Source of the DNA: Bacteroidales bacterium
GTDB lineage: Bacteria > Bacteroidota > Bacteroidia > Bacteroidales > FEN-979
Direction of reading: 5' to 3'
NCBI GenBank assembly: GCA_049520195.1
Contig: JBEKQA010000002.1
Coordinates: 1 to 44,628 of the forward strand
Length of the DNA: 44,628 nucleotides
The notes beneath the pieces are model-generated. The model did no database searches. It was not told where the DNA came from and saw only the letters and a list, made by a program, of their open reading frames with translations. Both the position numbers and the translations under genes were made by a program. Shown here in pieces: positions 475-37,002 of the stretch (its first letter is position 1; every line of letters starts with the position of its first letter).

Positions 475-478
475 AATT

Positions 479-1460: not shown

Positions 1461-1485
1461 AGTTATACTTTATAATTGAAAGATG

Positions 1486-1827: not shown

Positions 1828-1850
1828 AATCCATCTTAAAGCAAAAAGAG

Positions 1851-3081: not shown

Positions 3082-3656
3082 AGTTTGACCATTCAGAATG
3101 ATAGACAAAACAAAATTAGAGCATTTAATAGATAACCGTGCTGTTTGTGTATAAATTGTAAAATGCCTACTTGTAAATAAAATTACAATAAACATTTAAA
3201 ACCCAGTTCACTTTACCTCAATGATTATTCAATTTAGGACTCACAAAGAAATCATTTCAGAATTACTTGATTTTCAATGTTGGAATTGATGTTTATTGGT
3301 TTAAATATGTAAAATTAAAAGAAAAATCAGGCCTTACATGGGAATGTTATTAACAGCAAAAAAACAGATACGCAGGATTTGTTGTGGCATATGGTTCATA
3401 AGTAGAAAATTGAAGAGAACTTAAATTCGCTAATTACCATGCCCTGTAAGATTCAACTATAAATCATAAACCTGACCGTATAATCTATTTTACCGAAGAG
3501 AACCCACAACCGTTGAATTTTCAATAATTTAGTACAGACAGGGATATCAAATCAAGACAGCGGCTTGGTTCGACTAATTGAAAATGAAACAACTTGCACC
3601 TTGAACCGAATCCGGGTTGAAGATAAAGTTGTGGGACATTCACCATGGTGATTTTT

Positions 3657-3707: not shown

Positions 3708-3773
3708 TAAGTTTAGTTTTTTGAAATGCCGATAATCTCTACCTTTATTCCACTTTTATTCAAAGAATACACT

Positions 3774-7500: not shown

Positions 7501-7585
7501 GGTGACCATCAAAGACATTTGTAATCGAATCGGTGACGTAAAAGGCACTCAGGTTGAAATTATCCTTCCATTGAGAACCCCATAA
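4547..7585 (+). pseudogene. LytS/YehU-type sensor histidine kinase with N-terminal signal/TM, beta-propeller sensor repeats, a TM helix, and His_kinase + HATPase domains; interrupted by one in-frame TAA at 4844..4846
   Basis: ORFs 4547..4846 and 4913..7585 are in the same frame (both coordinates are 2 mod 3). Translation reads straight through: ...WIGCMKGGI*KYDGKTFINYSTKQGLVNDNVRVVWYSKK. Kinase hallmarks are NPHFIFNSINSI (LytS-type H-box), PMIIQPYVENAVRHG and DNGVG. The TTG start overlaps the regulator's stop (TTGA). Confidence 0.8.
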
Positions 7586-7716: not shown

Positions 7717-8457
7717 ATGAAAAATCCTCACATCTTCTGGATCGGATTCCATCAACGAAATCTAAAATGTTTTTTAGACCATTTTTCAAGAAGGTCGGTC
7801 TTTCTTCTTGGAATAATCCTCATTGTTCTAATATTTATTAGTTGTACCAGCAAGGAAAAAGGAATAAATGTTTTAGTTGGAGAATGGAATTATTCTGGCA
7901 TCCAAACCGAGCTGACCATAACTAAACAAGATACTACTGTAATAGGAATTTTGAATCAAACTTTACATGACAATATGCAAAGCCCATCAATAGAATATCC
8001 CGTTGGAAGTGTTCTATTTAAAGATATTAAAAAATTGTCTGATACAACTTTTATTGCTAAGGGGCTATACATAAAACCTGTATATAGAACAGAAGAAGTA
8101 TTTGTTCGTTCTTACTTTACTTTTCAAAAAGACCATTATGAAACTACAAAGGTTTTTGACCATAATGAAAATATTTACGTGGATTATAGATTAATGTTGA
8201 GAGTAAAACTTGAGAACATAAAATCAAAATTTATACGGTATGATGAACTCAATTGTATACCTTTTGTAGAAGGTCCTAGATGGACATTCTTTGGGAAATT
8301 ATCTCCGGAAGATAAAATATTTCTTGAACAAGAAATAAAAATAGTCAATGATTCCATAAGAATAGCCGATTCTACAGCCGTGAAGAAAGCCGAGCAAATA
8401 CGCCAAAAAGCCATCGATTCTCAAAAATCAAAGAGAGCACAGGAATTGTTAAAGTAA
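7717..8457 (+). CDS. putative lipoprotein, unknown function
   Basis: Hydrophobic segment ending in a lipobox-like LIFISC, followed by TSKEKG. No other motif recognised. Confidence 0.6.
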   Translation: MKNPHIFWIGFHQRNLKCFLDHFSRRSVFLLGIILIVLIFISCTSKEKGINVLVGEWNYSGIQTELTITKQDTTVIGILNQTLHDNMQSPSIEYPVGSVLFKDIKKLSDTTFIAKGLYIKPVYRTEEVFVRSYFTFQKDHYETTKVFDHNENIYVDYRLMLRVKLENIKSKFIRYDELNCIPFVEGPRWTFFGKLSPEDKIFLEQEIKIVNDSIRIADSTAVKKAEQIRQKAIDSQKSKRAQELLK

Positions 8458-10605: not shown

Positions 10606-10653
10606 CTAATAATGGTAAAAATGAGAACAAGTCTGATTATTTCCTTAATACTT
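10465..10653 (+). repeat. junction repeat copy A (intact 3' end of the TPR gene, its stop, and a truncated signal-peptide start)
   Basis: Aligns by eye over about 185 bp with 12318..12500 (roughly three-quarters identity). Its core, GAAATTCATGGARRAAGTATGTAAATAACTAWAAATG, also matches 11449..11488. Confidence 0.75.
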
Positions 10654-10686
10654 ACTTTTTTGTGCGGAATTGATTCATTTCATTGA
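10612..10686 (+). pseudogene. 24-codon remnant ORF encoding only a signal peptide (MVKMRTSLIISLILTFLCGIDSFH*)
   Basis: Nucleotide-homologous to the 5' end of gene 12468 (MKTKVIITLILLWLG...) but terminates after 24 codons. Confidence 0.45.
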
Positions 10687-10717
10687 TGGTATAAAATAAT
10701 CTATAAAACTTATAAAT

Positions 10718-11389
10718 ATGAAAAAATCAATTTTTCTGATAACCATTCTGATGGGGTTATCAATGGCAGTTAATTCTCAGAACCAACAACTTAAATCAGT
10801 TACAGGAACTTTTGTCAAAGCGAATGCTTTTGAAGCATCTTTCAACGTGATATTTGAGAATGAATCAGGTAAAGAAATCTCATTCTCAATAAACGGCGAT
10901 TATAAAATTAATGGGAAAAATATCATTAAATATGATCCAACACTTGTTGATCATAACAAACCCGGATTCTCTGGTGATGACGGTTATATAGCAAATCCTG
11001 AATTCGTCAATAAAAAAATGAAAGTGACATATAAATTAGTTAAAGTTTCGCAAGAGGAGAAGGATCGAGGAATTGAGGATTACGAACAAGTAGTCAAATT
11101 GGAATTGATTTCATCCGATCAAGGACAAACAGCATCTGCAACATGGATGGTAATTTTTGGTTCATTTAAAACCCAAAATGAAGCGATAAATTCACAGAAA
11201 CAGTTCATGACAAAGTATCAACTTCAAACCGAAGTGTTGAATTCTAACAATTTTCAAAATTTGACTAAGGATCTCTTTATTGTTGTCGGTGGGAAAAATC
11301 TGACAAATGTCTGTGCTAAACAACTTTTGGATAAGATAAAGGGGATGAAAATTGAGGGATATATAAAAGATGGAGGTTTGATGAAATAA
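10718..11389 (+). CDS. secreted protein with possible C-terminal SPOR-like (peptidoglycan-binding) domain
   Basis: Signal peptide MKKSIFLITILMGLSMAVNSQ. The C-terminal WMVIFGSFKTQNEAINSQKQF...LFIVVGGKNLTNVCAKQLLDKIK resembles the beta-alpha-beta-beta SPOR pattern. Weak, judged by eye only. Confidence 0.65.
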   Translation: MKKSIFLITILMGLSMAVNSQNQQLKSVTGTFVKANAFEASFNVIFENESGKEISFSINGDYKINGKNIIKYDPTLVDHNKPGFSGDDGYIANPEFVNKKMKVTYKLVKVSQEEKDRGIEDYEQVVKLELISSDQGQTASATWMVIFGSFKTQNEAINSQKQFMTKYQLQTEVLNSNNFQNLTKDLFIVVGGKNLTNVCAKQLLDKIKGMKIEGYIKDGGLMK

Positions 11390-11446
11390 TGGAGAAAATG
11401 GTCAAATTGATTATCATTAGTCCGGTGTAAGTTGAATACTATAATC

Positions 11447-11505
11447 TAAAGAAATTCATGGAGAAAGTATGTAAATAACTAAAAAATGAAAATTATGAAA
11501 ACAAT
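11447..11505 (+). repeat. junction repeat copy B (short fragment of the TPR gene 3' end, stop, and next gene start)
   Basis: AAAGAAATTCATGGAGAAAGTATGTAAATAACTAAAAAATG matches the last ~25 nt plus stop of gene 8491..10605 (KFMEEVCK*) and its downstream spacer. Confidence 0.7.
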
Positions 11506-12271
11506 TAGTCAAATTCTTGCAATAATCCTCCTTTTTATAGGGGTGTATTCTACAACTGGCCAAACAAAGTCTAATGTAAATACTAATAATACAGTCCAAA
11601 ATAATCTAGGGAAAGTCAATCTTTATGCTGGTATGAATTCTTTTGAAGGAATCTATGACAAATCTAAAGTGACCGAATTACAATTAAAAAACACATGGGA
11701 TTTAATTAATAATCTATCTAACTATACTGATCTTGAATCTCAACTTCGTTTAATGTACCTCAAACCCGAAAATTTAAAAAATATTAATACCGAGTCTTTA
11801 AAAAAAGAATATTCAGAAAAAATAAACCAATTAAAGAAATTAGATATTATCAAATCCATATTCTGGGAAGATCTTAGGGAGGATGTTTTAAAAGAGATCG
11901 AACAAGAATTTACATACACAGAAACTATCATTCAAAGTTTTAAGAATCCGGAAAAACTTAAACAGTATGATTCTTTAAATGTTTGTGCAAAATTCACTGA
12001 TGCTTTATTAAAGGGCGGCGAGCAATTATTGATAACATGGAAGGAATTGAACCAAGAACAACAAAAAAATAATGCTTGTCCTGAGTGTGTAATAAAGGAA
12101 TTTAATCAAAAGTATAATTCTCCTAATAAATTGGATTATGCTCGCATCGAAGTGGTTACCTTTGGCTGGGGAAATTGTATTACTTTAAAATCGTATGTTC
12201 CAGATTGGAAGTTACTTGATGCAGAATTCAGAAAAATCTTCATTAAGATTAACGACAACGCAGGAATTTAA
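11486..12271 (+). CDS. secreted hypothetical protein
   Basis: Signal peptide MKIMKTISQILAIILLFIGVYSTTGQ. No domain recognised. Confidence 0.65.
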   Translation: MKIMKTISQILAIILLFIGVYSTTGQTKSNVNTNNTVQNNLGKVNLYAGMNSFEGIYDKSKVTELQLKNTWDLINNLSNYTDLESQLRLMYLKPENLKNINTESLKKEYSEKINQLKKLDIIKSIFWEDLREDVLKEIEQEFTYTETIIQSFKNPEKLKQYDSLNVCAKFTDALLKGGEQLLITWKELNQEQQKNNACPECVIKEFNQKYNSPNKLDYARIEVVTFGWGNCITLKSYVPDWKLLDAEFRKIFIKINDNAGI

Positions 12272-12317
12272 GGATACATCATATATAACTTTTTATCATT
12301 AAATTTTTAATTGATAG

Positions 12318-12500
12318 GTTGCAAACATTTATCAATTCAGAGCTAAAATATTAATTACTCGGAAACTTCAAAGATGCTTATCCAGATATGAAAAAGACAG
12401 TTAACTTGAGGATTATAAGACACGAAATTCATAGAGGAACTATGTATATAACTTAAAAATTGTAAAAATGAAAACAAAAGTGATTATTACTTTAATACTC
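12318..12500 (+). repeat. junction repeat copy C (frame-broken copy of the last ~140 nt of the TPR gene, spacer, and 5' end of gene 12468)
   Basis: GGTTGCAAACATTTATCAATTCAGAGCTAAAATA...GGAAACTTCAAAGATGCTTATCCAGATATGAAAAAGACAGTTAACTTGAGG...GAAATTCATAGAGGAACTATGTATATAACTTAAAAATTGTAAAAATGAAAACAA aligns with 10465..10653. The copy no longer maintains the reading frame. Confidence 0.75.
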
Positions 12501-13109
12501 CTTTGGTTAGGAGTAGTTCCTTTTCAGGGACACACACAAAAACCAACATTAAGAGTATTTACACTTGATCAAAGTATTTTCTCTTGTGGTGATGCTGATG
12601 TTCTAATCGTACTTTTCTTTTCTTCGGATTCTGTGAAAGGAATCCAACAGACCTTTGGGGCAGAAGGAAACGAAATCTGTGCAGAACCTTCAGGTTGTTA
12701 TCTTGGGAAAGTTTCTCAGCAATCAATAACTGGAAGTTTCTTACCGGACTATTTCAATAACGTATTTAAATCCCCTTTGACATTCAAACTTACTCTTAAC
12801 AATAATATGCTTGATGTCTCAAAAAATAATGGCACAAAATATTCATTTATTGAAGCTGATACACAAGGATGGATGTATACTACTTCATCAATTAACTTAC
12901 GAGAAAAACCCTCCTCAAATTCAAAAATATTGACTAAAATACCAAAAGATCAAACAGTCTATCTTCTTGAATTTGGTTTCTATAGAACAATCGGAGATAA
13001 AAAAGGGTTTTGGACAAAAGTAAAATTTGGTGATCAGGAGGGATGGGTGTTTGGATCATATTTAATGCACACTGATTCAAATACTGGCGAAGAAGGAGTT
13101 GGTAATTGA
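12468..13109 (+). CDS. secreted protein with C-terminal bacterial SH3 (SH3b-like) domain
   Basis: Signal peptide MKTKVIITLILLWLGVVPFQGHTQ. The C-terminal INLREKPSSNSKILTKIPKDQTVYLLE...GFWTKVKFGDQEGWVFGSYL matches the SH3_3 pattern. Confidence 0.75.
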   Translation: MKTKVIITLILLWLGVVPFQGHTQKPTLRVFTLDQSIFSCGDADVLIVLFFSSDSVKGIQQTFGAEGNEICAEPSGCYLGKVSQQSITGSFLPDYFNNVFKSPLTFKLTLNNNMLDVSKNNGTKYSFIEADTQGWMYTTSSINLREKPSSNSKILTKIPKDQTVYLLEFGFYRTIGDKKGFWTKVKFGDQEGWVFGSYLMHTDSNTGEEGVGN

Positions 13110-24873: not shown

Positions 24874-25812
24874 ATGACAACTGATTTTATAAAAGCCATT
24901 AAGAACCAAGATCTTAAGGCTGTACGCCATGCACCTAAAAGCGATCTTCACAATCATGCTATGATGGGAGGGAAGCTGAAGAGCATGGAGAAATTTTTAG
25001 GAAACAAACTGGAGAAATTTAAAAATGGAAGTCAGGGCGTAATGGGTATTAATTATTGGCTTGAAAATGTTTATCGTCCGCTTTTTAACATTCCGGGAGC
25101 CTTTAAAGCTGCGGTTGATGCTGCTTTTATACAGGCTAAGTCAGACGGTGTGTCAATTCTCGAAATGAGCGTAGATGCTTTTATGGCGAGGTTATTTAAC
25201 ATTAAACCGGAAGAGGTTGCCTCGACATTGACCGCATCACACAAGGCCATCGCTCCTGAGATAGATTTTCGTCCCGAGCTTGGATTCTCAAGGGCTCTCC
25301 CGCTCCGGACAATTCTTCCTTGCGTTGAACCCTTTCTGGAAATGAATTATTTTCGATCCATAGATATTTACGATATTGAAGATGCCCAGCCGGTTGAGAA
25401 TTTTAAAGAACTTTACAGGTTTGCCAAACATCAGGGGATTAAGTGCAAGGCCCATGCGGGTGAATTTGGCGATGCTGAATCTGTAAGAAAAGCCGTTGAA
25501 GTTCTTGGCCTTGATGAAGTTCAGCACGGAATTGGTGCAGCAGATTCGCCAGAGGTCATGAAATGGTTATCAGCCAATAGGATTTCGCTGAATGTTTGTC
25601 CTGCAAGCAATATCGCCCTTAAAAGAGTAAAATTGTATCAGGTCCATCCTATCCGTATCCTCTTTGATCATGGCGTGAATGTCACAGTCAATACTGATGA
25701 TGTGATGCTGTTCAATGTCGGGAACTCAGAACAATATTTAAAATTATACACTTCAAAACTATTCAGCGCTGAGGAATTGGATACAATTCGCAAAAACGGA
25801 CTCGGGAACTAA
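24874..25812 (+). CDS. adenosine deaminase-family amidohydrolase
   Basis: DLHNH metal motif, KAHAGEFG, and VNTDD near the C-terminus. Confidence 0.8.
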   Translation: MTTDFIKAIKNQDLKAVRHAPKSDLHNHAMMGGKLKSMEKFLGNKLEKFKNGSQGVMGINYWLENVYRPLFNIPGAFKAAVDAAFIQAKSDGVSILEMSVDAFMARLFNIKPEEVASTLTASHKAIAPEIDFRPELGFSRALPLRTILPCVEPFLEMNYFRSIDIYDIEDAQPVENFKELYRFAKHQGIKCKAHAGEFGDAESVRKAVEVLGLDEVQHGIGAADSPEVMKWLSANRISLNVCPASNIALKRVKLYQVHPIRILFDHGVNVTVNTDDVMLFNVGNSEQYLKLYTSKLFSAEELDTIRKNGLGN

Positions 25813-25820
25813 AAAGGTTA

Positions 25821-26309
25821 TCAAAACCTTTTGACATAGATTATTCTCCCGTCACCCGGCTTGTAATAATCGTCAATCACAGCATCCTTGCTATAACCAT
25901 TCTTTTCGTAGAATAACCGGGTCGGTAAATACTTTTCGAGGGTCGAAGTCTCAGCAATAATATAACGAGCTCCTTTATCCTTCACTTTGTTGTGAGTTTC
26001 TGCAAGAAGCTGTTTTCCAATTCCTGTTCCGCGCATCGTATTATGTGTTGCGATCCAGTAAAGATCGTATCCCGCATCTGTTCCGGCAATATGTCCATAG
26101 CAACTATAAGCAACTGTTTTACCGTCAACTTCTGCAAAAATGAATTGATAGGAACTCTTATCACCTTCCATAACGGAATCCTCAACCAATTCGACTGCTA
26201 CAGGCACTTCAAAATCATAGAAAAATCCCGTAGAAATAACTATTTCCCTGACGTTCTCAATATCCTCATAAGTCGGGGTTGTCCTGAATTTAATCCTGTT
26301 TAATTCCAT
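25821..26309 (-). CDS. GNAT-family N-acetyltransferase
   Basis: Acetyl-CoA-binding motif A, MRGTGIGKQLL. Size is typical for the family (162 aa). Confidence 0.85.
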   Translation of the reverse strand: MELNRIKFRTTPTYEDIENVREIVISTGFFYDFEVPVAVELVEDSVMEGDKSSYQFIFAEVDGKTVAYSCYGHIAGTDAGYDLYWIATHNTMRGTGIGKQLLAETHNKVKDKGARYIIAETSTLEKYLPTRLFYEKNGYSKDAVIDDYYKPGDGRIIYVKRF

Positions 26310-26337
26310 TTTGCTTAAAACTTAGAATGCAAATGTA

Positions 26338-27318
26338 CTAAGGTTTCATGGCTTCTTCAACGATCATTCGGATCACATCGACAAATTTATAACCCGCCTT
26401 TTGTGTTGCTGCGATGAAGCCTCCCGATTCTGAAATGCAGGGATTCAGGTTAAGATCAATCACCATAGGAACCCGGTCGGCAGCCATTCTGAAATCAATC
26501 CTGACATATCCTTTGAACCCAAAGCTATTCCAGCATTTCTTACATATTCTTTCAATTTCTTCCTTGATATCTTTATCTTTTGAATCTAATTTAAAAGTCC
26601 GTCGTGTGTGTGTGTACTCGAAGGAATCTTCTTTCCATTTTGCAGTATAGCCCATGATTCTTGGTTTTCCTTCCGGATAATCCACGAAGGTCATCTCCGC
26701 AATGGGAAGTACCAATGGCCCTTCTTTAGTTCCGATAATTGAAACGTTGAATTCCCGTCCCTCAATAAACTCTTCTATAAAATAGTAATGCTTGTCTTTC
26801 TTTGCTATTTTTTTTATGAATTCCTTATCTGAACTGTCAAAGACACTGTCCTCATCGAGCCCTAAAGAACCCTCTTCCCAGGTTGGTTTAAGGATATATT
26901 TCTTTCCTTTCTTTAACTTGGTTATCTGATCCATAGTAAACCAGGGCGGTGTCTTGATACCTAACCTGGTAATTTGTTGCTTGGCGATAACTTTATTTGC
27001 AGCAAAAAATAGCGGAATTAAGGGATTCCCGGAGAAAGGGACATTAAGATGCATAAGAATTGCGGCAGGCATATATGCAAATTCGCCTTTATTGTCAAGG
27101 GTCTCTGCAAGATTGAAAACAAAGTCGGGATTGATATTCTGAATTTCCTTGATGGCCTTATGAAGATTAAGATTCATCTGGTACTCTTTGACTTTGTATT
27201 TAAGCTGTATTAAAGCTTTTGAAACGATCCTGACCTGATCAAGAACATCCAACTCATCATCTTTTGGATGGGCCGATATTTTATTATACAGGATTAATGC
27301 AATCTTGCTCATAAGCAT
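26338..27318 (-). CDS. ATP-grasp ligase, D-Ala-D-Ala ligase-like (copy 2)
   Basis: About 325 aa with Ddl-like architecture: a pre-ATP-grasp N-domain; KPTWEEGSLGL; EEFIEGREFNVSI; RIDFRM...VIDLNLNP. The start could be Met3 (27312). Confidence 0.8.
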   Translation of the reverse strand: MLMSKIALILYNKISAHPKDDELDVLDQVRIVSKALIQLKYKVKEYQMNLNLHKAIKEIQNINPDFVFNLAETLDNKGEFAYMPAAILMHLNVPFSGNPLIPLFFAANKVIAKQQITRLGIKTPPWFTMDQITKLKKGKKYILKPTWEEGSLGLDEDSVFDSSDKEFIKKIAKKDKHYYFIEEFIEGREFNVSIIGTKEGPLVLPIAEMTFVDYPEGKPRIMGYTAKWKEDSFEYTHTRRTFKLDSKDKDIKEEIERICKKCWNSFGFKGYVRIDFRMAADRVPMVIDLNLNPCISESGGFIAATQKAGYKFVDVIRMIVEEAMKP

Positions 27319-27455
27319 GAATTTTAAGATTGAATAGTGAAAGACCCGGTGGAGTTAATCTTACAAGTTTGAAGAATACAGCGAATATAATAAATACTCT
27401 CTGACTGCTGTAATTTTTTTAGCCTTCCTTTGCAAATTATTATTCACAGTCAGGC

Positions 27456-28439
27456 CTAACTTCTAAGATGTACTCTTTTTATTGCCGAATCAATAATCGT
27501 CTTAATAATGAAAGAATAATCGTAGCCGTTCATTCTGGCCAGGATCGGTAAATCGGAAGTAATATCATTTAATCCTGCCAATGGGTTTATCTCAATGAAG
27601 TTGGGTATCCCATTTGCATCTAGCCTGACATCTATCCGGCCTCCATCGCGGCATCCCAATGCTTTCCATGCCCTTAAGGCCATCTCACAGCAGGAACTCA
27701 TGATCTCCGGTTCAGGGAGTGCATAGTCTATGTATTGCTCGTAATTTGTTTTCAGATCGTACGAATAGACACTTTCCTGAGCATTGCTTCTGAACAAGAC
27801 TTCCATTGCCCCCACTGAGAAACTTTCTTCTCCCGTACCCAAAACACCGACGGTGAATTCTCTTCCAGGAAGATAGGTCTCAACAATAAGCGGAAAGATA
27901 TTTTCTTTCCATCTATCTGCACATGTGGCTTTTAGATCTTCAAGGTTATTGACTTTTGAATTATATCCGATCCCCTTGCCGGAACCTTCAGCATTTGGCT
28001 TGATGAAAAGCGGATACGGAAGGCCGATCTTTTTAATATCATTTGCAGACTCAAGAACGATAAAATCGGGAGTGGGAATACCGCAATCACGGATTACATG
28101 TTTCGTCATCCCTTTGTGGAGAGTCAGAGCCAAGACGAGAGGATCGGAAAACGTATAGGGAATTGAGTATGCATCAAGGATTGCAGGAACCTGTGCTTCG
28201 CGGCCGATACCGTAGAGCCCTTCACTGATATTGAACACAAGATCCCAATGTTTGCCTTCAACAAGGCTTTTAGTCAGGTTCAATATATGCCCGATACGCT
28301 CGGTAGAATGCCCGAGGAAATGTAATTCTCGCTCAATGGCTTCTACTGTACTTTCTTTATCAAATTCTGCTGTTTCTTCTTCTGAAAACCCTTCTTTCAG
28401 ATAATCTGATCGAAGATCATAGGTGAGGCCGATTCGCAT
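27456..28439 (-). CDS. ATP-grasp ligase, D-Ala-D-Ala ligase-like (copy 1)
   Basis: FIKPNAEGSGKGI, VETYLPGREFTVGVLG and RIDVRLDANGIPNFIEINPLAG. The start lies 3 nt after the kamA-like stop. Confidence 0.85.
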   Translation of the reverse strand: MRIGLTYDLRSDYLKEGFSEEETAEFDKESTVEAIERELHFLGHSTERIGHILNLTKSLVEGKHWDLVFNISEGLYGIGREAQVPAILDAYSIPYTFSDPLVLALTLHKGMTKHVIRDCGIPTPDFIVLESANDIKKIGLPYPLFIKPNAEGSGKGIGYNSKVNNLEDLKATCADRWKENIFPLIVETYLPGREFTVGVLGTGEESFSVGAMEVLFRSNAQESVYSYDLKTNYEQYIDYALPEPEIMSSCCEMALRAWKALGCRDGGRIDVRLDANGIPNFIEINPLAGLNDITSDLPILARMNGYDYSFIIKTIIDSAIKRVHLRS

Positions 28440-28442
28440 AGA

Positions 28443-29714
28443 TTATTCCTTGAAATCAGGATACCTGAAGATATTGTTCTCGTAATTTCTTAGCAAAACA
28501 TAATCTTCATCACGTCCCTGGTAATAATCAGGTAATAAAGGTATCTTACCTCCACCCCCGGGTGCATCAATCACGTATTGTGGTATAGCATATCCTGTTG
28601 TATGTCCTCTCAGACCATCAATAATCTCGAGACCTTTTGCAACGGGTGTACGGAAATGAGCTGAGCCGAGAATAGGATCACATTGATATAGGTAATAAGG
28701 TCTGACTCTGATTTTCAATAATCCTTGCATCAATTTCTTCATGATGGCTACGTCATCGTTGATTCCCTTCAGTAATACAGTTTGGCTTCCAAGTGGAATT
28801 CCTGCATTGGCAAGCCTTTCACAAGCCTCTTTGACTTCTGAGGTGAGTTCGTCGGGATGTGTGAAATGAATGCTGATGAAGAGAGGATGATACTTTCTAA
28901 GGATATTGACGAGTGAACGTGTAATCCTCTGTGGTAATACGGCCGGTACTTTAGTGCCGATACGAATGATCTCAACATGTGAGATCGCCCTCAATCTTGA
29001 AAGCAGGTAATCAATGTGTGGATCGGGCATCGTAAGAGGATCGCCTCCTGATACCAGCACATCACGTATTTCTGGATGGCTTTCAATGTATTTAAATGCA
29101 GGCTCCCATGCCTTGGTCCCAACATGGCACTTATCCTTGGCAACCATATGCGAACGGGTACAGTAACGGCAATAGGTTGAGCAGAATCCTGTAGCAAGGA
29201 AGAGAACCCTATCCGGATACCGATGTACTATATTAGGAACCGGGCTGTTATGCTCCTCAGATAAAGGATCCGATGCTTCACCCGGACTGGTAAAGAATTC
29301 ATCTATCACAGGAACAACACATTTTCGCAAAGCCTGATCAGGATTATCCTTTTCCAGTAAACTCAGATAATATGGAGTTATACTTACCGGTAAAGTGTTG
29401 TTGATTTCAGCGGCAGGTCTTATCTCATTATCAGAAAGATTGATGAATCGTGAAAGCTGGTCAATCGTGCGAACGCTATTCTTTAACTGCCAGCGCCAGT
29501 TAGTCCAGTCCTTCTCTGTGGCTTCTGGAAAGTATTGCTTAATAAAGTCTAAGGAACGTGGGCTCAGATTTGTTTTATCTCGATCGAGCCGGTCTTGGAT
29601 GAATTCTCTTAATATCTGTTCTTCACTTATGAAACATTTTGTACTTGGAGGCTCTTCTTCTTCATTGAGCTCTGCGTGGGTCACTTCCGTTTTTTCGTTG
29701 TGAAGTCTTTCCAT
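28443..29714 (-). CDS. KamA-family radical SAM aminomutase (lysine 2,3-aminomutase-like)
   Basis: Radical-SAM cluster motif CSTYCRYCTRS, SGGDPL, and the family hallmark RPYYLYQCDPILGSAHFRTP. Confidence 0.9.
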   Translation of the reverse strand: MERLHNEKTEVTHAELNEEEEPPSTKCFISEEQILREFIQDRLDRDKTNLSPRSLDFIKQYFPEATEKDWTNWRWQLKNSVRTIDQLSRFINLSDNEIRPAAEINNTLPVSITPYYLSLLEKDNPDQALRKCVVPVIDEFFTSPGEASDPLSEEHNSPVPNIVHRYPDRVLFLATGFCSTYCRYCTRSHMVAKDKCHVGTKAWEPAFKYIESHPEIRDVLVSGGDPLTMPDPHIDYLLSRLRAISHVEIIRIGTKVPAVLPQRITRSLVNILRKYHPLFISIHFTHPDELTSEVKEACERLANAGIPLGSQTVLLKGINDDVAIMKKLMQGLLKIRVRPYYLYQCDPILGSAHFRTPVAKGLEIIDGLRGHTTGYAIPQYVIDAPGGGGKIPLLPDYYQGRDEDYVLLRNYENNIFRYPDFKE

Positions 29715-29880
29715 TTCAGTTTTAAGGTTACTAAAAACCGGCTTTCCCTGCCCTGCAGCCCTGAATGTTGTTCCATGGTGTAAAACATTGATAATCCGAT
29801 TTTTAAATTAATAATTCATTGAATGAATTTGCCGAAATTTATCCGCAAATTTCATCATGCAAATAGGTACATTTTTTTAG

Positions 29881-29888
29881 TACATTTG
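29881..29888 (+). promoter_or_regulatory. possible Bacteroidota -7 promoter element (TAnnTTTG) for the hydrolase gene
   Basis: TACATTTG lies 63 bp upstream of the 29951 ATG. A single-motif match only. Confidence 0.25.
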
Positions 29889-29950
29889 ACAAAGGTACAA
29901 ACTTATTTTTCAACAAAATATTGTTAATAAAATTATATTTCTGAACGCGC

Positions 29951-30721
29951 ATGAAATTATTTTTTAGGCACATGGGACAAGGGAATCCGGTGATCATATT
30001 ACATGGATTACTAGGACTTTCAGACAATTGGGTCTCATTTGGACGGCAACTTTCAACTGATTTCGAAATATTCATACCTGATCTTCGCAACCATGGCCAA
30101 TCTCCACACGATCCCGTGTTTAATTTCCCATCTCTTGTTAAAGATCTGTTGGATTTTATTAACGACCTAGGGTTGAAAAGGCTGAATCTTATTGGTCACT
30201 CACTTGGAGGAAAAACCGCAATGTCATTTGCCCTTGAGTACCCGGATAGAATAAATAAACTTGTTGTCGTAGATATCGCTCCCCGCAAATATCCTTCTAA
30301 TCTTGAACATGAATTGCTGATTGATGCTATGCTTAAAGTTGATCTTACCTTGGCACACTCACGATCAGATATTGAAAAGCAGCTTGAACCCAATGTTCAC
30401 AGTTCAAGATTGAGGCAATTTTTATTAAAGAGTGTTTATTGGAAAGATAAGCAATCACTGGGGTGGCGAATTAACCTACCTGTTTTAAAAGATTCACTTC
30501 CATTCATAATGGAGGAAATCAGCCCTAATAAGAAGTTGCAGAATCCTGTTTTGTTCGTTCGTGGAGGTCAGTCTGATTATATAACGGATAATGATGTTCC
30601 TGAAATTCTAAGGCTATTTCCGCTATGTACCATAAAAACCCTTGAAAACGCTTCCCACTGGGTACACGCCGATGTGCCCTTTGAATTCTATTCAGTGGTG
30701 CATGATTTTCTGATTTCCTGA
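29951..30721 (+). CDS. alpha/beta-fold hydrolase
   Basis: HG oxyanion-type motif (VIILHGLLG), nucleophile elbow GHSLGG, and C-terminal ASHWVHAD (catalytic His). Confidence 0.85.
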   Translation: MKLFFRHMGQGNPVIILHGLLGLSDNWVSFGRQLSTDFEIFIPDLRNHGQSPHDPVFNFPSLVKDLLDFINDLGLKRLNLIGHSLGGKTAMSFALEYPDRINKLVVVDIAPRKYPSNLEHELLIDAMLKVDLTLAHSRSDIEKQLEPNVHSSRLRQFLLKSVYWKDKQSLGWRINLPVLKDSLPFIMEEISPNKKLQNPVLFVRGGQSDYITDNDVPEILRLFPLCTIKTLENASHWVHADVPFEFYSVVHDFLIS

Positions 30722-31663
30722 TCAGTACCTTTCTACATCAATCGATGACACTGCAGTTTTAATCATGATATAGATCCTGGTCTTGTTGCCCTTGAAGTTG
30801 GATGTCTGATAAACATGGTTCCCTTTATTCTCAAAGCCTTCCAGGTTCTTGCTGACGAGGAATGATTCAGAGGTAACCTGGCAGCCTGATGTCTTTGGGA
30901 CATAGACATGTATCGAGGAAGCACCGGCATTGAACTCCATGAAAGTCTCCGGATTTCTATCTCCTAACTTCACAGTCATTGATGTTGCCCCGGCTTCAAA
31001 CTTTGCTGTATCAATTTTATACTCACTCAAATCAAAGTTTGCATCAGCAGCGCCAATATTCAGGTTAAGTGTCCAGACAGGTTTTGTATTCAGTTTTATG
31101 GTTACTTCATTTTTCCTGATATTGTGCCTTGAGGTTCCTTCTTTTAGTGTCAGAGAGATTTTTTTATCCTTGCCTTGGTCTTTTGTTGTCAATTCATAAT
31201 TTCCGATATCCCCGCTTTTGTTAAAGGAGAGAAATTCCGAAGTTCCTTCGTTTATCTTAAAATTGCCGGCAGCAGCATCCAGGCTCAAAATTCCTTTAGT
31301 TGCTATTGAATCGAATGGAACGGAAAGATTCTGATCACTGAAGGTTTTGGTATTCGTATCATTATCTTCATCATCCCATTCCCATCTGAAAGAATGATCG
31401 GGATGATGAAAATGCCAGTACCAGGGACGTCCCTCTGGCATATGGTTTATAAAAAGGAACATACTGACCAGTACAAGGCCCAAAAGAACATATTTCACGA
31501 TATCTTTTACGGGTAGAATGGTAATTCCCCAGAGTAAAAGGATGACAGGCCATAATCTCCAGAATGAATACCAGCTGAAATGTATGATCCCCAGATTGTT
31601 CAAAATGAAAAGCATTCCAATCGCGATAAGGATCAATCCCCAAAATAAATGTTTGTATTTCAT
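30722..31663 (-). CDS. membrane protein with LiaF/LiaI-like TM region and beta-rich C-terminal (toast-rack/DUF4097-like) domain
   Basis: N-terminal TM helices with repeated W-rich loops. The C-terminal half alternates beta-strand-like segments. It sits next to a PspC-domain gene. Confidence 0.6.
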   Translation of the reverse strand: MKYKHLFWGLILIAIGMLFILNNLGIIHFSWYSFWRLWPVILLLWGITILPVKDIVKYVLLGLVLVSMFLFINHMPEGRPWYWHFHHPDHSFRWEWDDEDNDTNTKTFSDQNLSVPFDSIATKGILSLDAAAGNFKINEGTSEFLSFNKSGDIGNYELTTKDQGKDKKISLTLKEGTSRHNIRKNEVTIKLNTKPVWTLNLNIGAADANFDLSEYKIDTAKFEAGATSMTVKLGDRNPETFMEFNAGASSIHVYVPKTSGCQVTSESFLVSKNLEGFENKGNHVYQTSNFKGNKTRIYIMIKTAVSSIDVERY

Positions 31664-31738
31664 GAGTTATCTAATTTACGGATTTAAATAAACATTTCTT
31701 GTGTACAGAAAAATGTCTGCATTTACCAGGAAAAGAAA

Positions 31739-32221
31739 TTATGGATTGTTTCTTCTTCCCGAAAAATTATTGATCAATAGGCCAATACCTATAGCGACAA
31801 GAATAAGCGGCCATAAGTCCGAGAAACTGACACGTGGAATAAATTCATCCGCCAGGAATAAAGCGCCAAGGGTGATCAATACCAACCCACCGATAAGATT
31901 TCCGCGATCCTTGTGACGTCGTGGAGGATAGGGGTAAGGCTCATTTTTTGGCTTTTCCTGTGTGCCCAGGGGTTCTTCATTTGAAGATTGCTTGTTTTCC
32001 ATATTTGGGGAATTTTGAAATTGTGAAAAATCAATTGGCTTTTCAGGTGTGATGATCCAGAGAATGATGTAAGCCAGAACACCACCTCCTGCCGCAATTA
32101 CTAGTACAACAAATAAAAGTCGAACAAGGATGGGATCAATATTAAAATATTCTGCAAGTCCGCCGCAGACTCCTGCAAACACTTTCTCGGTTCGGCTCCG
32201 GTAAAATCGTTTTGGTTCCAT
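31739..32221 (-). CDS. PspC-domain membrane protein
   Basis: FYRSRTEKVFAGVCGGLAEYFNIDPILVRLLFVVL is the PspC domain signature. Additional C-terminal TM helices are present. Confidence 0.85.
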   Translation of the reverse strand: MEPKRFYRSRTEKVFAGVCGGLAEYFNIDPILVRLLFVVLVIAAGGGVLAYIILWIITPEKPIDFSQFQNSPNMENKQSSNEEPLGTQEKPKNEPYPYPPRRHKDRGNLIGGLVLITLGALFLADEFIPRVSFSDLWPLILVAIGIGLLINNFSGRRNNP

Positions 32222-32293
32222 AGGGTATAAATGTTGTTTTTAATCGGTTATTAGACGACAGGGTGATTCCAAAGTTACATCCTTAGTTGTTTT

Positions 32294-33118
32294 TTATGAG
32301 ACCGTTTCTTCTTTCTTCCTGTAAACCCTTTTCGACAATTGTACGCTAATTTCATAAAGTGCATAAAGTGGCACGGATACTACAAGCTGTGTAAATGCAT
32401 CCGGACTGGGCGTAATCAACCCTGCAATAAGAAGGATTAAAACAATAGTATGCTTCCGGTATTTTGACATAAATGAGGGACTCAGGATGCCAATCTTGGT
32501 CAGAACAACCACCACCACCGGGAATTCGAAAATAAGCCCCATTAGCAAAGTCATTGTCGTTACTGCACTTACGTAAGAATCAAGGGCGATCTGATTGGCT
32601 ACCGATTCACTCACCTGGTAATTCCCCAGGAAATTGACCATCAGGGGAACTGCCAGAAAATAGCTGAAAAGTACTCCTGAAATAAATAAGGAAGATATAA
32701 CCAAAACGGCACCACGCGTATTTTTCCGTTCTGTTTCAGTCAGTCCCGGTTTGACAAATCTCCAGAACTCCCAGATTATATAAGGTGAAGCAACTATAAA
32801 ACCTGCAATGAATGACGTCGTCATATGTGCCATAAACTGACCCGCCAGGCTTATATTGATGATGTGAAGAGATGAAGTATCCAGGCATAACGAGTTAACT
32901 CCAAAGAATTTTCCGATTTTGCACAAAACCCGGTAAGTGATAAAATCTGAGTTCTTGGGACCCAGGATAATAATATCAAAAAGAATATGTTTGAAACTGA
33001 AAGCAACAATAGATAATATTACAAATGCAATAATACCATGAATGAGAACGCTCCTGAATTCATCCAGGTGCTCCCAGAATGTCATTTCCGTTTTACTTTC
33101 TCTGTTTTTCCTGCTCAT
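32294..33118 (-). CDS. tatC: twin-arginine translocase subunit TatC
   Basis: MTFWEHLDEFRSVLI start motif and six TM segments. Confidence 0.9.
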   Translation of the reverse strand: MSRKNRESKTEMTFWEHLDEFRSVLIHGIIAFVILSIVAFSFKHILFDIIILGPKNSDFITYRVLCKIGKFFGVNSLCLDTSSLHIINISLAGQFMAHMTTSFIAGFIVASPYIIWEFWRFVKPGLTETERKNTRGAVLVISSLFISGVLFSYFLAVPLMVNFLGNYQVSESVANQIALDSYVSAVTTMTLLMGLIFEFPVVVVVLTKIGILSPSFMSKYRKHTIVLILLIAGLITPSPDAFTQLVVSVPLYALYEISVQLSKRVYRKKEETVS

Positions 33119-34105: not shown

Positions 34106-34609
34106 CTAGGTAAATATGATCTGTGTCTGAAGTCCGCCACATAACGAATAAAAATCTCCGACAGTCAGGACTTCTTTAACACCTTCCCAAAGATCTTCTT
34201 TCTTGAGCTTAAACATATCCATCGCAAGTTTACAGGCGTAAACATTACCTCCACCGGCTTCTATCATTTCTAAAAATTCCTTCACGCCTGGAATATCCAG
34301 CTTTTCCATCTGACCTTTCATCATTGCTGATACACCCGCCTCAACTCCTGGCAACATTCCAAGAATAGATGGGAAAGGTAACCCGCCGGGCATTCGCATG
34401 GCCGGGTTTCCAACAGTTCCGGTATGAAGTTTATTCATTTGTTTTTTTGTGATCGCATCAAGACCAAAAAACGTAAAAAAAACATTGGTTTCAATGCCTT
34501 CCATTACGGCGCCATTCGCTAAAACAAGCGTTGCGTAAACATCTTCTATTGTGCCTTTTGCGCATATGATACAAACCTTTTTTAAAGGGAATTCTTCTTT
34601 GGTTGTCAT
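34106..34609 (-). CDS. DsrE/DsrF-like family sulfur-relay protein
   Basis: KKVCIICAKGTIEDVYATLVLANGAVMEG...FFTFFG is typical of the DsrE-like fold. Gene context is with TusE/DsrC. Confidence 0.7.
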   Translation of the reverse strand: MTTKEEFPLKKVCIICAKGTIEDVYATLVLANGAVMEGIETNVFFTFFGLDAITKKQMNKLHTGTVGNPAMRMPGGLPFPSILGMLPGVEAGVSAMMKGQMEKLDIPGVKEFLEMIEAGGGNVYACKLAMDMFKLKKEDLWEGVKEVLTVGDFYSLCGGLQTQIIFT

Positions 34610-34665
34610 TTTTGATTGAATTAAATTGTGAGTTTTAGTTCTATTTTAATTTGTAAATCAGGATG

Positions 34666-34977
34666 TTAAACACAACTTGCGGGTTTTGGAATACCTGCGA
34701 TCTTAGCAGCTTTCTTCATGGGGGCTCCCGGAAAAAGGCCATAAAATCCTTTTATATCCACAATCCCTGAATTCCCTACTGCCCTGATTGTCAAAGTCTC
34801 CCCTTTTTTGTGCTTCTCTCTTAAATAATCAAGAATAGCGAAATGCTTCTCCGTAAGCTCTAATCCTTCTTCTTTCGCTATTTCTATTGCAATTTCCTTA
34901 GTCCATTGTGAAGAATCGGTCATGTATCCTTCATCATTTACATTGACGGTTACGCCAGCTATTACTTTCTGTCCCAT
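34666..34977 (-). CDS. TusE/DsrC/DsvC-family sulfur relay protein
   Basis: Size is typical (103 aa). DEGYMTDSSQWTKEIA is present, with the characteristic C-terminal GIPKPASCV (penultimate Cys). Confidence 0.85.
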   Translation of the reverse strand: MGQKVIAGVTVNVNDEGYMTDSSQWTKEIAIEIAKEEGLELTEKHFAILDYLREKHKKGETLTIRAVGNSGIVDIKGFYGLFPGAPMKKAAKIAGIPKPASCV

Positions 34978-35072
34978 AAGAATAACTTTTTAGATTTACT
35001 GTTTAAGTTGAATTTAAAGATTTTTTATTTTTTTACTTTTTAATTCCATCTCTCTAATACATCTGTCCGCTC

Positions 35073-35104
35073 TTCCGCCATTTCACGATTCCGCCATTTC
35101 GCTA
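35073..35104. repeat. tandem 16-bp repeat x2 (TTCCGCCATTTCACGA / TTCCGCCATTTCGCTA)
   Basis: Read directly. 14/16 identical. Overlaps the stop codon of gene 35102..35764. Confidence 0.6.
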
Positions 35105-35764
35105 TCTCGCTATTTCCTTCATTACCTTTAGCGAGTATGAAATGGATTTTCTCACTTCTTTTGAATTAAGCTGACGCACGATTCGCCACATGGAAAGTAC
35201 CTCTTTTTCATCCTCCATTTTAACATTTGAAATTACCTTCGTGATTTTATTTAGGGTTGCCAGAAACTCTGGATCTGAAAGATTTCGTACAATTCTGGCT
35301 ATATTGTCAAGGTTATTTTCAACTTTCTGCAGATCTTCTGCAGGAAATACCTCAACCCATTTAGTTAATAATCTGGTAAGCAGGCGGATATATTCAAAGT
35401 AACCTTTCTGATCAAGTTCATTCATTTTGTTCACTGCGTCAAGCCCAACCTGGTGCAGAATAGGGGTGACATCCTTTGCAAAATCTTTTGCACTTTCAAG
35501 CATTTCGATCAACTCGTGAAAAGTGTCCACATTTTGCAGTACCCTGATGATCAGAGAGACGAACCCATCGTAATCAAGTTCAACCTGTGCTTTATCCAAT
35601 AGCACCACACTATTCTTAAATGCATCCTTTGCGACCAATGAAACATCAGTGACTAAATCATCGATTTCCTCCCTTTTTCTATGCTGTTCTTCAACGAATT
35701 CCAATAAACGGTCTATCTTCCTGTCAAGAAGTTGGATCTGTTCTTTTATCATTGCTTCTTCCAT
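35102..35764 (-). CDS. DUF1641-like helical protein
   Basis: Helical, acidic 220-aa protein immediately downstream (8-nt gap) of the SQR-like flavoprotein. The assignment rests on this recurrent pairing and overall character, not on a strict motif. Confidence 0.55.
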   Translation of the reverse strand: MEEAMIKEQIQLLDRKIDRLLEFVEEQHRKREEIDDLVTDVSLVAKDAFKNSVVLLDKAQVELDYDGFVSLIIRVLQNVDTFHELIEMLESAKDFAKDVTPILHQVGLDAVNKMNELDQKGYFEYIRLLTRLLTKWVEVFPAEDLQKVENNLDNIARIVRNLSDPEFLATLNKITKVISNVKMEDEKEVLSMWRIVRQLNSKEVRKSISYSLKVMKEIAR

Positions 35765-35772
35765 AGTCTCAT

Positions 35773-37002
35773 TTACATTTTTTTACCTGCCATAGTCATT
35801 TTTGAATCAATTGGCATCTCCTTGCCTTTCAATAGAATATGCCAGTAAATCCAACGGAACATTAATTTCCCGTAATGATTGGCCCGGGTTTCTTTTAACA
35901 GTCCGAATGGACCGATTCCTGGGAATGGAAAGAATCCCGGCAATGGCTCTGTATCATAATTGAAATCGATCAAAGCACCTTTCCCGAATCCTGTTTCGAT
36001 GTAACAATTTGAATGACCGTCAGAAGATGCAGTAAATGGCCGGTTTTCAATTGCGCACATAATATTTTCTGTTAAAACATCTGCTTGGAAATGAACAACT
36101 GATCCCGCTTTTGAGGTCGGGAAATTTCCTGCATCGCCGATCACAAAAATATTCGGGAAAAGATCTGACTGCAAAGTAAATTTATTGGCCTTCACATAAT
36201 CCATATCATCACCTAATCCGCTTCTTCCGATAACTGGATCTCCTTTATGTACAGGAATTGTGACAAGACAATCATATGCTATCTCTCTTTCATCATAAGA
36301 AATGAGTACCTTCCTGCTTTCATCAACCTTCTCAAGATAGAAATCAGGAACGATATGAATGTTTTTATCTTCGAGCATATTTCCCAGGACTTTCGATGCT
36401 CTGGGTTTTGTAAATGCGCCTGACATTGGGGTCACATAAGTGATATTCACTTTATTTCGTAAGCCTCTTTCTACGAAAAATGCATCAGCGAACATCACGA
36501 ATTCCAAAGGAGCAACAGGGCATTTGATGGGTATTTCCGCAATATTGAGTACCAATTCACCTCCCTGCCAGGTCTTGAAGAAATCAGCCAATGCAATGGC
36601 TCCTTCAATAGAATAGAAATCGAAAATATTTTTATGCCAACATTCGCCTTTCAAACCAGGTGTTTCTTCAGGAAAAGTCTTGCAACCTGTTGCAATAATG
36701 AGAAAATCGTATTTCAATGAAACTCCGTCTTTAAGAATGACATGATTATCCAGGGCATCAATCTTTTCAATTTCTTCAAAAACAACATTTACTCCCAATG
36801 GAAGAAAACTTGTCTTAGGTTTAATGACATCTGCTTTGATATACATCCCAAATGGTATGAATAGAAATCCTGGTTGATAATAATGTGTTTTATTCTGATC
36901 AACAATGGTAATATTCCATTCCTCACGGGATAAAAGCTTCCGTAATTTATTAGCCATGATAGTGCCACCGGTTCCGGCGCCGAGAATCAATATTTTATTC
37001 AT
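35773..37002 (-). CDS. NAD(P)/FAD-dependent oxidoreductase, sulfide:quinone oxidoreductase-like
   Basis: N-terminal Rossmann motif KILILGAGTGGT, the IKCPVAPLEF Cys motif, and a second dinucleotide motif VIGDAG. Confidence 0.8.
   Translation of the reverse strand: MNKILILGAGTGGTIMANKLRKLLSREEWNITIVDQNKTHYYQPGFLFIPFGMYIKADVIKPKTSFLPLGVNVVFEEIEKIDALDNHVILKDGVSLKYDFLIIATGCKTFPEETPGLKGECWHKNIFDFYSIEGAIALADFFKTWQGGELVLNIAEIPIKCPVAPLEFVMFADAFFVERGLRNKVNITYVTPMSGAFTKPRASKVLGNMLEDKNIHIVPDFYLEKVDESRKVLISYDEREIAYDCLVTIPVHKGDPVIGRSGLGDDMDYVKANKFTLQSDLFPNIFVIGDAGNFPTSKAGSVVHFQADVLTENIMCAIENRPFTASSDGHSNCYIETGFGKGALIDFNYDTEPLPGFFPFPGIGPFGLLKETRANHYGKLMFRWIYWHILLKGKEMPIDSKMTMAGKKM

Follow-up and report, generated by a model that had tools for sequence, protein, structure and literature searches.

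What might a bacterium make with a lysine aminomutase homologue, two ATP-grasp ligases and an acetyltransferase encoded side by side? The question is raised by a four-gene cassette at positions 25821–29714 of contig JBEKQA010000002.1 (assembly GCA_049520195.1), from a Bacteroidales bacterium of lineage FEN-979. We use "the window" for the whole 44,628-nt stretch that was analysed; the feature under study is the cassette. The original prediction, made by reading the DNA without database searches, held that beta-lysine is made, ligated once or twice to a partner and N-acetylated. Conserved gene order, gene fusions and conserved lysine-binding residues all lend this predicted pathway support. With a probability of roughly 0.6, the cassette would be a self-contained, horizontally mobile operon whose product is a small amide or oligopeptide that contains beta-lysine, is N-acetylated and has two amide bonds. 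All four genes lie on the minus strand, and the coordinates, lengths and gaps first reported for them proved exact:

28443–29714, minus strand: KamA, 423 amino acids (aa), containing CSTYCRYC and RPYYLYQCD
27456–28439, minus strand: AG1, a Ddl-fold ATP-grasp ligase, 327 aa
26338–27318, minus strand: AG2, a second, divergent Ddl-fold ATP-grasp ligase, 326 aa
25821–26309, minus strand: a small GNAT N-acetyltransferase, 162 aa
29715–29950, 236 bp: intergenic region between kamA and the divergent gene upstream of it, where the promoter of the four genes probably lies

Three nucleotides separate the kamA stop from AG1, 137 bp separate AG1 from AG2, and 28 bp separate AG2 from the GNAT gene.

Enzyme families encoded by the cassette

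Profile searches with Pfam and NCBIfam bore out the initial assignment of the four proteins to the KamA radical-SAM, ATP-grasp (twice) and GNAT families. KamA carries the Pfam domains LAM_C and Radical_SAM and passed the NCBIfam model for the KamA family as a whole (TIGR00238, 374 bits, cut-off 199). It fell below the cut-offs of the models for AblA (TIGR03820, an equivalog model; 472.8 bits against 525.4), glutamate 2,3-aminomutase (440 against 650), arginine 2,3-aminomutase (389 against 600) and EpmB (258 against 369), with AblA the closest named subfamily. A phmmer comparison aligned 360 residues (60–419) to Clostridium subterminale lysine 2,3-aminomutase (PDB 2a5h, E = 1.7e-128). Relative to this solved enzyme, KamA bears an acidic N-terminal extension of ~55 aa, with an EEEEPPS motif at residues about 18–24. 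In 2a5h numbering, the window protein keeps the CxxxCxxC motif (C125/C129/C132), R134, D293, D330 and K337. These residues are kept in 107–108 of 108 cassette KamA proteins, R134 in all 108 and D293 and D330 in 107, the window protein included. According to published structures, Arg134 binds the lysine carboxylate, Asp293 and Asp330 the epsilon-ammonium group, and Lys337 pyridoxal phosphate; in glutamate 2,3-aminomutase, both aspartates are replaced. Since KamA passes only the general family model and keeps the lysine-binding residues, it is, by these sequence measures, a lysine-type mutase of its own subfamily, clearly not EpmB-like. It is strongly predicted to be an L-lysine 2,3-aminomutase, that is, a beta-lysine synthase.

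Both ligases belong to the ATP-grasp superfamily by fold and by their ATP/Mg residues. AG1 matched the Pfam family Dala_Dala_lig_C (E = 2e-27), and AG2 matched the same family (E = 9e-16) and ATP-grasp_3 (E = 3e-11). On the Ddl subfamily model NF002378 (cut-off 243 bits), AG1 scored 148.2 and AG2 95.8; on the Ddl model TIGR01205 (cut-off 245.65 bits), they scored 120.5 and 74.7. These scores are about 40–60% of the Ddl cut-offs, and both proteins lie far below the cut-offs of all Ddl and Van models. The two ligases had been described as paralogous, which holds in a distant sense; AG1 is in fact slightly nearer to Escherichia coli DdlB (28.5% identity) than to AG2 (25%). An AlphaFold2 model of AG2, built with database homologues (predicted local distance difference test score, pLDDT, 83.8), had DdlB structures as its best Foldseek matches (template modelling score 0.76–0.80, 16–20% identity). 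Profiles of the AG1 and AG2 families searched against the PDB returned Ddl/Van and generic ATP-grasp enzymes only, with no characterised ligase closer than Ddl/Van. The AG1 profile matched Ddl at E about 1e-40 and the ATP-grasp domains of cyanophycin synthase at E about 1e-6 to 1e-7. AG1 is the most conserved ligase of the cassette, with 55–60% identity across phyla.

To locate differences in the active site, 77 AG1 and 60 AG2 orthologues were aligned to E. coli DdlB, and residues are given in DdlB numbering. All numbered residues of the DdlB reference that were checked bore the expected letters.

K97, K144, E180, E187, K215, R255, D257, E/D270 and N272 (ATP, Mg and catalytic residues): kept in AG1 (n = 77) and in AG2 (n = 60)
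E15: kept in AG1; H, N, K or T in AG2
E68: kept in AG1; L or F in AG2
S150: S or T in AG1; G or A in AG2
Y216: deleted in AG1; invariant Trp in AG2
G276: kept in AG1; invariant Cys in AG2
S281: kept in AG1; G, S or A in AG2
L282: Asp in 75 of 77 AG1 orthologues, at AG1 position 296; Gly in AG2

In published DdlB structures, Glu15, Ser150 and Tyr216 form the triad for the first D-alanine, and Ser281 and Leu282 the site for the second. Neither AG1 nor AG2 retains this set of residues. Judged by scores and alignment, AG1 and AG2 are Ddl-fold ATP-grasp ligases but not true Ddl. For AG1, which keeps the part of the Ddl site that binds a free amine, we infer a first substrate with such an amine and a second substrate with a cationic side chain; its Asp at the side-chain pocket for the second Ddl substrate would fit a cationic lysine or beta-lysine partner. 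AG2, whose acidic amine-binding residues are lost, would have a larger, more hydrophobic pocket and would take a carboxylate donor without a free alpha-amine.

The fourth protein matched Acetyltransf_7 (E = 4.5e-12), Acetyltransf_1 and Acetyltransf_10 above the Pfam cut-offs and shows the R-G-x-G-x-G motif of the acetyl-coenzyme A (acetyl-CoA) type (RGTGIG, within MRGTGIGKQ). Domain and motif together make it a member of the GNAT family. Its best named NCBIfam match was RimI, at 40.5 bits against a cut-off of 86.4 (E = 2.6e-10). No AblB-type family appeared among its NCBIfam matches at E ≤ 0.01, the presence in that library of the AblB model (TIGR03827) being unconfirmed. The nearest solved structure is a structural-genomics entry, PDB 2r7h (E = 1.6e-36), titled "putative D-alanine N-acetyltransferase". 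This name appears to be an annotation by gene context, with no tested activity behind it. The entry comes from Desulfovibrio (Oleidesulfovibrio) alaskensis G20, and its nearest match among the scanned genomes is an Oleidesulfovibrio MAG (L081). By sequence comparison, the fourth cassette protein is a small acetyltransferase particular to the cassette.

Conservation, gene fusions and a fifth gene

A scan of about 185,000 species-representative genomes seeded with AG1 gave at least 584 confirmed loci. OY759717.1 is one of the complete genomes that carry the cassette. Synteny was counted in the best 80 of these, with denominators limited to loci with enough flank. A second scan was seeded with the sequence of 2r7h, and both scans together supplied 160 loci for clustering of open reading frames (ORFs). 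Phylum names given here are labels in the record titles of the genomes that carry the loci.

The order of the four genes was strongly conserved. The kamA gene lay directly upstream of AG1 in 67 of 75 AG1-seeded loci, AG2 directly downstream of AG1 in 71 of 73, and the GNAT gene after AG2 in 63 of 67. All four genes were present in the same order in 55 of the 66 loci with complete flanks, an arrangement that exceeds chance by far. AG1-seeded loci were labelled Bacteroidales, Ignavibacteriales, Calditrichota, several Desulfobacterota, Bdellovibrionota, Aminicenantes, Competibacteraceae and others. The 2r7h-seeded scan added loci labelled Planctomycetota, Woeseia, Spirochaetia, Thermoanaerobaculia, Gemmatimonadota, Chloroflexota, Nitrospinota and Riflemargulisbacteria, and ligase-bearing loci were also labelled Acidobacteriota, Gammaproteobacteria, Bacteroidota and Ignavibacteriota. 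The original prediction had asked how often the genes occur together and in which phyla; they stay neighbours in genomes labelled with at least a dozen phyla.

Clustering of the 2103 ORFs from the 160 loci gave KamA, ATP-grasp, GNAT and a GNAT-HDAC protein as the only broadly shared families. No efp- or epmA-like family was conserved near the cassette over these loci. Genes for lysine fermentation (kamDE, kdd, kce, kal) were absent near the cassette in the window and from the families conserved over the 160 loci. The earlier reading had already noted that partner genes for fermentation and for modification of elongation factor P (EF-P) are missing at this locus.

Gene fusions joined the products of neighbouring cassette genes. 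A phmmer search of 1.84 billion representatives returned 652 clusters at E ≤ 1e-30. Among the best matches were at least two single polypeptides combining KamA and AG1 (P0383, 746 aa; P0493, 784 aa) and at least 11 clusters at 50% identity with AG1–AG2 fusions (e.g., P0361). AG2–GNAT fusions occur in loci L057 and L074, and a 749-aa ORF in L085 is probably a fusion of GNAT-HDAC with the small GNAT, as judged by length and our own ORF calling. The fusions link each step to the next and, together with the 3-nt junction of kamA and AG1, argue that AG1 would act on newly made beta-lysine.

The same search showed a set of ~580–720-aa proteins with two tandem Ddl-like domains (P0385, P0388, P0391, P0404, P0415 and P0424), both domains being nearer to AG1 (26–39% identity) than to AG2.

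In 25 loci, mainly of Desulfobacterota, Planctomycetota, Ignavibacteriales and Calditrichota, we found a fifth gene. Its product, of ~580 aa, joins a GNAT-like domain at the N-terminus to a C-terminal histone-deacetylase (HDAC)/acetylpolyamine-amidohydrolase domain (PF00850, E = 4.5e-76) that shows the HH, D-x-H and EGGY catalytic motifs. The position of the gene varies between loci: between AG2 and GNAT, after GNAT, or before AG1 (e.g., L040:7999–9741, L027:4206–5999 and L081:10688–12424, with about 22 further loci). The window holds no copy within its 44.6 kb. As GNAT-HDAC is common in other lineages, the acetyl may serve only for a time, to protect or to regulate, and be missing from the final product.

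The 2r7h-seeded scan also brought out a second, divergent cassette with the order AG1'-AG2'-GNAT-KamA' in Ignavibacteria, other Bacteroidota and Gemmatimonadales (L120, L123, L128, L131, L132, L136, L142, L143, L146, L147, L149, L152, L155 and L158). Its KamA' is shorter (~350–385 aa), and its AG1' is 31–39% identical to the AG1 of the window.

Regulatory elements were seen in some Desulfobacterota. In three loci (L081 at ~6400, L085 at ~4350 and L087 at ~4080), kamA is preceded by near-consensus sigma-54 elements (TGGCAC-N5-TTGC, one mismatch), and genes for NtrC-type sigma-54 activators, identified by eye, adjoin the cassette at L081:4799–6220, L107:3590–5263 and L160:3977–5026. The window shows no comparable element or activator. 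These sites and activators hint at nitrogen or stress control in Desulfobacterota only.

Candidate pathway, rival explanations and known systems

In the proposed pathway, KamA would convert L-lysine to beta-lysine, an activity predicted from its conserved residues. AG1, translationally coupled or fused to KamA, would use ATP to form an acyl-phosphate and then the first amide bond involving beta-lysine. The second amide bond would be made by AG2, whose substrate would lack a free alpha-amine (the AG1 product, for example, or an intermediate that is already N-acetylated), and the small GNAT would acetylate one amine from acetyl-CoA. The GNAT and AG2 steps could occur in either order, and the AG2–GNAT fusions suggest that they are adjacent. 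Where GNAT-HDAC accompanies the cassette, as in many other phyla, the acetyl would probably be removable, as part of a protection–deprotection scheme or of turnover. By analogy, this logic resembles the synthesis of glutathione or of N-acetylglutaminylglutamine amide (NAGGN). The role is most likely that of a cytoplasmic stress or nitrogen-related solute, and this is the weakest part of the model. More tentatively, and with somewhat less than even confidence, the cassette could stand for an unrecognised, widespread class of metabolites, namely an acetylated beta-lysine pseudo-tripeptide or short oligomer that serves as protectant or nitrogen buffer. Anaerobes of at least a dozen phyla would make such a compound with a dedicated pair of Ddl-derived ligases, and a reversible acetyl switch, GNAT against GNAT-HDAC, would control its charge or turnover.

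Several observations weigh against the proposed pathway. The evidence from sequence points to no particular product, ligation partner or acetylated amine, and the arguments from residue roles rest on alignment to DdlB and on published Ddl and lysine aminomutase structures, not on a ligand-bound model. Over the 160 loci, no target protein was conserved with the cassette, nor did any exporter, importer or regulator accompany it throughout. The closest relatives were recovered from metagenomes of freshwater, fen and peat, sources that do not speak for a salt-specific osmolyte. In 8 of 75 AG1-seeded loci, kamA was missing upstream of an intact AG1-AG2-GNAT set. Three of these eight loci, in Bacteroidales lineages, hold short N-terminal kamA remnants of 110–157 aa (L027:3740–4213, L034:5607–5996 and L046:5438–5770). 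The remnants keep an acidic E/D-E-P-P-S motif ("EDDEPPS" type) that also occurs in the N-terminal extension of the window KamA. The kamA-less loci indicate that a supply of beta-lysine in cis is not obligatory, or that another substrate can be used. Together with L029 and L064, where kamA and AG1 are present and AG2 and GNAT absent, they show the module to be somewhat plastic.

We considered whether the ligases might instead build a polymer or oligomer, for example oligo- or poly-beta-lysine or an alternating co-polymer as in cyanophycin. It would store nitrogen or act as a polycation, and its charge or chain ends would be set by acetylation and deacetylation. Beta-lysine, with two amines and one carboxylate, is able to polymerise, the two distinct ATP-grasp sites are often fused, like those of the two-ligase cyanophycin synthetase, and the sigma-54 sites and NtrC-type regulators of some Desulfobacterota would suit nitrogen control. 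The weak match of the AG1 profile to cyanophycin synthase is, however, of the generic ATP-grasp kind, dipeptide-forming Ddl being far closer. The enzymes are of compact Ddl size, they have no primer-binding or Mur-ligase-like domain, and no cyanophycinase-type depolymerase is conserved over the 160 loci; we therefore regard a polymer as unlikely. The case for protein modification, in which beta-lysine or a beta-lysyl peptide would be attached to a protein such as EF-P or a ribosomal one, with the GNAT as a protein acetyltransferase (cf. EpmAB, RimK and RimI), is weaker, and we consider it improbable. Its appeal is that the KamA homologue EpmB supplies EF-P beta-lysylation, that the ATP-grasp enzyme RimK extends ribosomal protein S6, and that RimI is the best named match of the GNAT. 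Against this, KamA scores on the AblA and lysine aminomutase models and not on EpmB (258 bits against a cut-off of 369), the product of EpmB is (R)-beta-lysine, the ligases are Ddl-type and not RimK-type, and the RimI score of the GNAT is less than half of the cut-off. Bacteroidota EF-P is reported to be active unmodified (PMC12856214), no efp, epmA or other candidate target is conserved over the 160 loci, and the patchy distribution, which resembles that of horizontal gene transfer, is unlike that of a core translation-factor modification.

A degradative role is very unlikely in our view. The cassette would then serve catabolism, salvage or detoxification of beta-lysine or diamino acids by acetylation and deacetylation, as in the Bacillus subtilis kamA operon. 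That an acetyltransferase and the GNAT-HDAC deacetylase accompany kamA in many lineages, and that AG1-AG2-GNAT is kept without kamA in some, would fit such a role. However, two ATP-consuming amide ligases are unexpected in a degradative route, the KamA–AG1 fusions imply immediate ligation of new beta-lysine, and neither the window nor the 160 loci show conserved aminotransferase, CoA-transferase, dehydrogenase, thiolase or kamDE/kdd/kce/kal genes. There is least to be said for a role in the cell wall, with AG1 and AG2 as alternative D-Ala-D-X or side-chain ligases and the GNAT as a "D-alanine N-acetyltransferase", and we think it highly unlikely. The names do point that way, as the nearest solved structures and database names of the ligases are all D-Ala-D-Ala ligase and 2r7h carries its D-alanine title. 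The residues do not: AG1 has no Y216, AG2 has neither E15 nor E68, L282 is Asp in AG1 and Gly in AG2, and both proteins score far under all Ddl and Van cut-offs. Moreover, the cassette has no vanH, vanX, mur or dcw neighbours in the window or the 160 loci, a link or fusion to a lysine aminomutase has no place in known peptidoglycan synthesis, and the cassette is sporadic (at least 584 of about 185,000 species genomes) where Ddl is universal. The original prediction had named bona fide ddl genes and an EpmB-type mutase as findings that would count against it. The sub-cut-off Ddl scores and altered substrate sites speak against the former, and the EpmB score, with no epmA-like gene conserved nearby, against the latter.

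The predicted beta-lysine amide pathway shares parts with several known systems. AblAB, the precedent for an acetylated beta-lysine solute, likewise combines a lysine 2,3-aminomutase gene with a GNAT gene, and AblA is the named subfamily on which the window KamA scores best. However, KamA lies below the AblA cut-off, the GNAT is smaller and of a different family, two ligase genes stand between kamA and GNAT and are fused to both partners elsewhere, and many cassette lineages add a deacetylase. Ddl and Van ligases are the closest solved structures to AG1 and AG2 and share with them the fold and the residues for ATP, Mg and acyl-phosphate catalysis; they differ in substrate-site residues and in context, which here is a lysine aminomutase and not a dcw or van cluster. 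In the EpmB/EpmA system, a KamA-family mutase also feeds beta-lysine to an ATP-dependent ligase. EpmA, though, has a protein as its substrate and is a paralogue of lysyl-tRNA synthetase, EpmB gives the (R)-isomer, and the cassette has a KamA that fails the EpmB cut-off and no linked efp or epmA.

Glutathione synthesis (GshA/GshB, or GshF with its Ddl-like ATP-grasp domain) offers a parallel in its two sequential ATP-dependent ligations to a small cytoplasmic peptide, and the AG profiles weakly matched the ATP-grasp domains of GshAB and glutathione synthase in the PDB search. This ATP-grasp similarity is remote. The cassette has no gamma-glutamyl-cysteine ligase domain, takes its building block from a radical-SAM mutase and adds an acetylation step. 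Beta-lysine antibiotics (streptothricins, negamycin, viomycin) also have a dedicated kamA for amide-linked products, and for streptothricin, acetylation of the beta-lysine amine by a GNAT that confers self-resistance is known. In negamycin, a dedicated kamA2 supplies the beta-lysine (bioRxiv 10.1101/2025.07.31.667836). These antibiotics come from large actinomycete clusters with non-ribosomal peptide synthetase and tailoring genes, whereas the cassette is compact (four to five genes), occurs in anaerobes of many phyla and has no other biosynthetic or resistance gene conserved with it. In NAGGN synthesis, a single enzyme, Ngg, N-acetylates glutamine and forms the peptide bond (PMC8070244). NAGGN is a small, non-ribosomal, N-acetylated peptide solute, and the AG2–GNAT fusions mirror the Ngg architecture. 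The NAGGN system uses glutamine and not beta-lysine, Ngg has one ligase domain where the cassette has two, and an AsnO amidotransferase takes part where the cassette has a radical-SAM mutase. Among all 18 NCBIfam matches of AG2 and the best 25 of 37 of AG1, there were Ddl-type or generic ATP-grasp models only and no Ngg-type model.

Operon, neighbouring genes and significance

The four genes look like one operon, given uniform GC content, no Rfam match and no internal promoter or terminator signal. GC was flat at 0.40–0.42 over the cassette and its flanks, Rfam gave no match at E ≤ 1 over window positions 25000–30500, and no convincing terminator or sigma-70 signal inside the operon exceeded shuffled background. 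The 137-bp gap between AG1 and AG2 holds no recognisable element, and its length varies in other loci. The likely promoter region at 29715–29950 contains TAnnTTTG motifs, which we take to be Bacteroidota −7 boxes: two on the minus strand at 29890–29905 and one on the plus strand at 29881–29888 that faces an alpha/beta-hydrolase gene. We rejected a riboswitch or leader RNA because Rfam at gathering thresholds gave one tRNA only on nine diverse cassette loci. A foreign island was rejected on the flat GC and on the lack of an integrase among the flanking ORF translations, read by eye, and anti-phage defence because PADLOC matched none of the four cassette proteins.

In the AG1-seeded loci L001–L071 and L161, mostly of Bacteroidales, the cassette is flanked by a block that lies at 29951–33118 in the window:

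29951–30721: divergent alpha/beta-hydrolase
30722–31663: LiaF-like membrane protein
31739–32221: PspC
32294–33118: TatC

In the 2r7h-seeded loci of other phyla, the block is missing; we took it as lineage synteny, though the divergently transcribed hydrolase could be functionally linked to the cassette. RecG-, GpsA-, PlsY- and DnaG-like neighbours in Ignavibacteria, identified by eye, were rejected as partners and assigned to housekeeping synteny.

Elsewhere in the window, a sulfur-handling-like gene set, recognised by eye, lies downstream on the minus strand at 34106–37002:

34106–34609, minus strand: DsrE-like protein
34666–34977, minus strand: TusA/DsrC-like small protein
35773–37002, minus strand: sulfide:quinone-reductase-like flavoprotein

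Two stretches of low GC (0.30–0.31, against about 0.40 elsewhere) occur at 1–3200 and 10000–13100. The ORFs of the low-GC set (1851–2402, 2392–3195, 7717–8457, 10718–11389 and 11486–12271) had no match in Pfam, and the set adjoins a LytTR response regulator and a Y_Y_Y/Reg_prop histidine kinase (3726–7585).

The enzyme families and the building block of the cassette are both known; what is uncharacterised, and widely conserved, is their combination. Our search of the full-text literature found no paper that describes it, and an earlier in silico mention in amidoligase surveys is possible. There was no model specific to the cassette proteins among their NCBIfam matches, and homologues bear public names that are unspecific or mislead ("D-alanine-D-alanine ligase", "ATP-grasp domain-containing protein", "RimI-like", "D-alanine N-acetyltransferase"). 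If the proposed pathway is true, it would correct a systematic mis-annotation in public databases and reveal two new substrate specificities in the Ddl branch of the ATP-grasp superfamily; such beta-amino-acid ligases would be useful in biocatalysis. Being small, and given its fusions, the cassette lends itself directly to tests by heterologous expression. In bacteria and archaea, beta-lysine has four known uses: as an intermediate in fermentation, as the precursor of an osmolyte, as a modifier of EF-P and as a building block of antibiotics. Its ligation by ATP-grasp enzymes into a small peptide, by a compact cassette that hundreds of species carry, would be a fifth use, and a new small-molecule pathway in anaerobes that abound in sediments, peat, lakes and digesters and are mostly uncultured.

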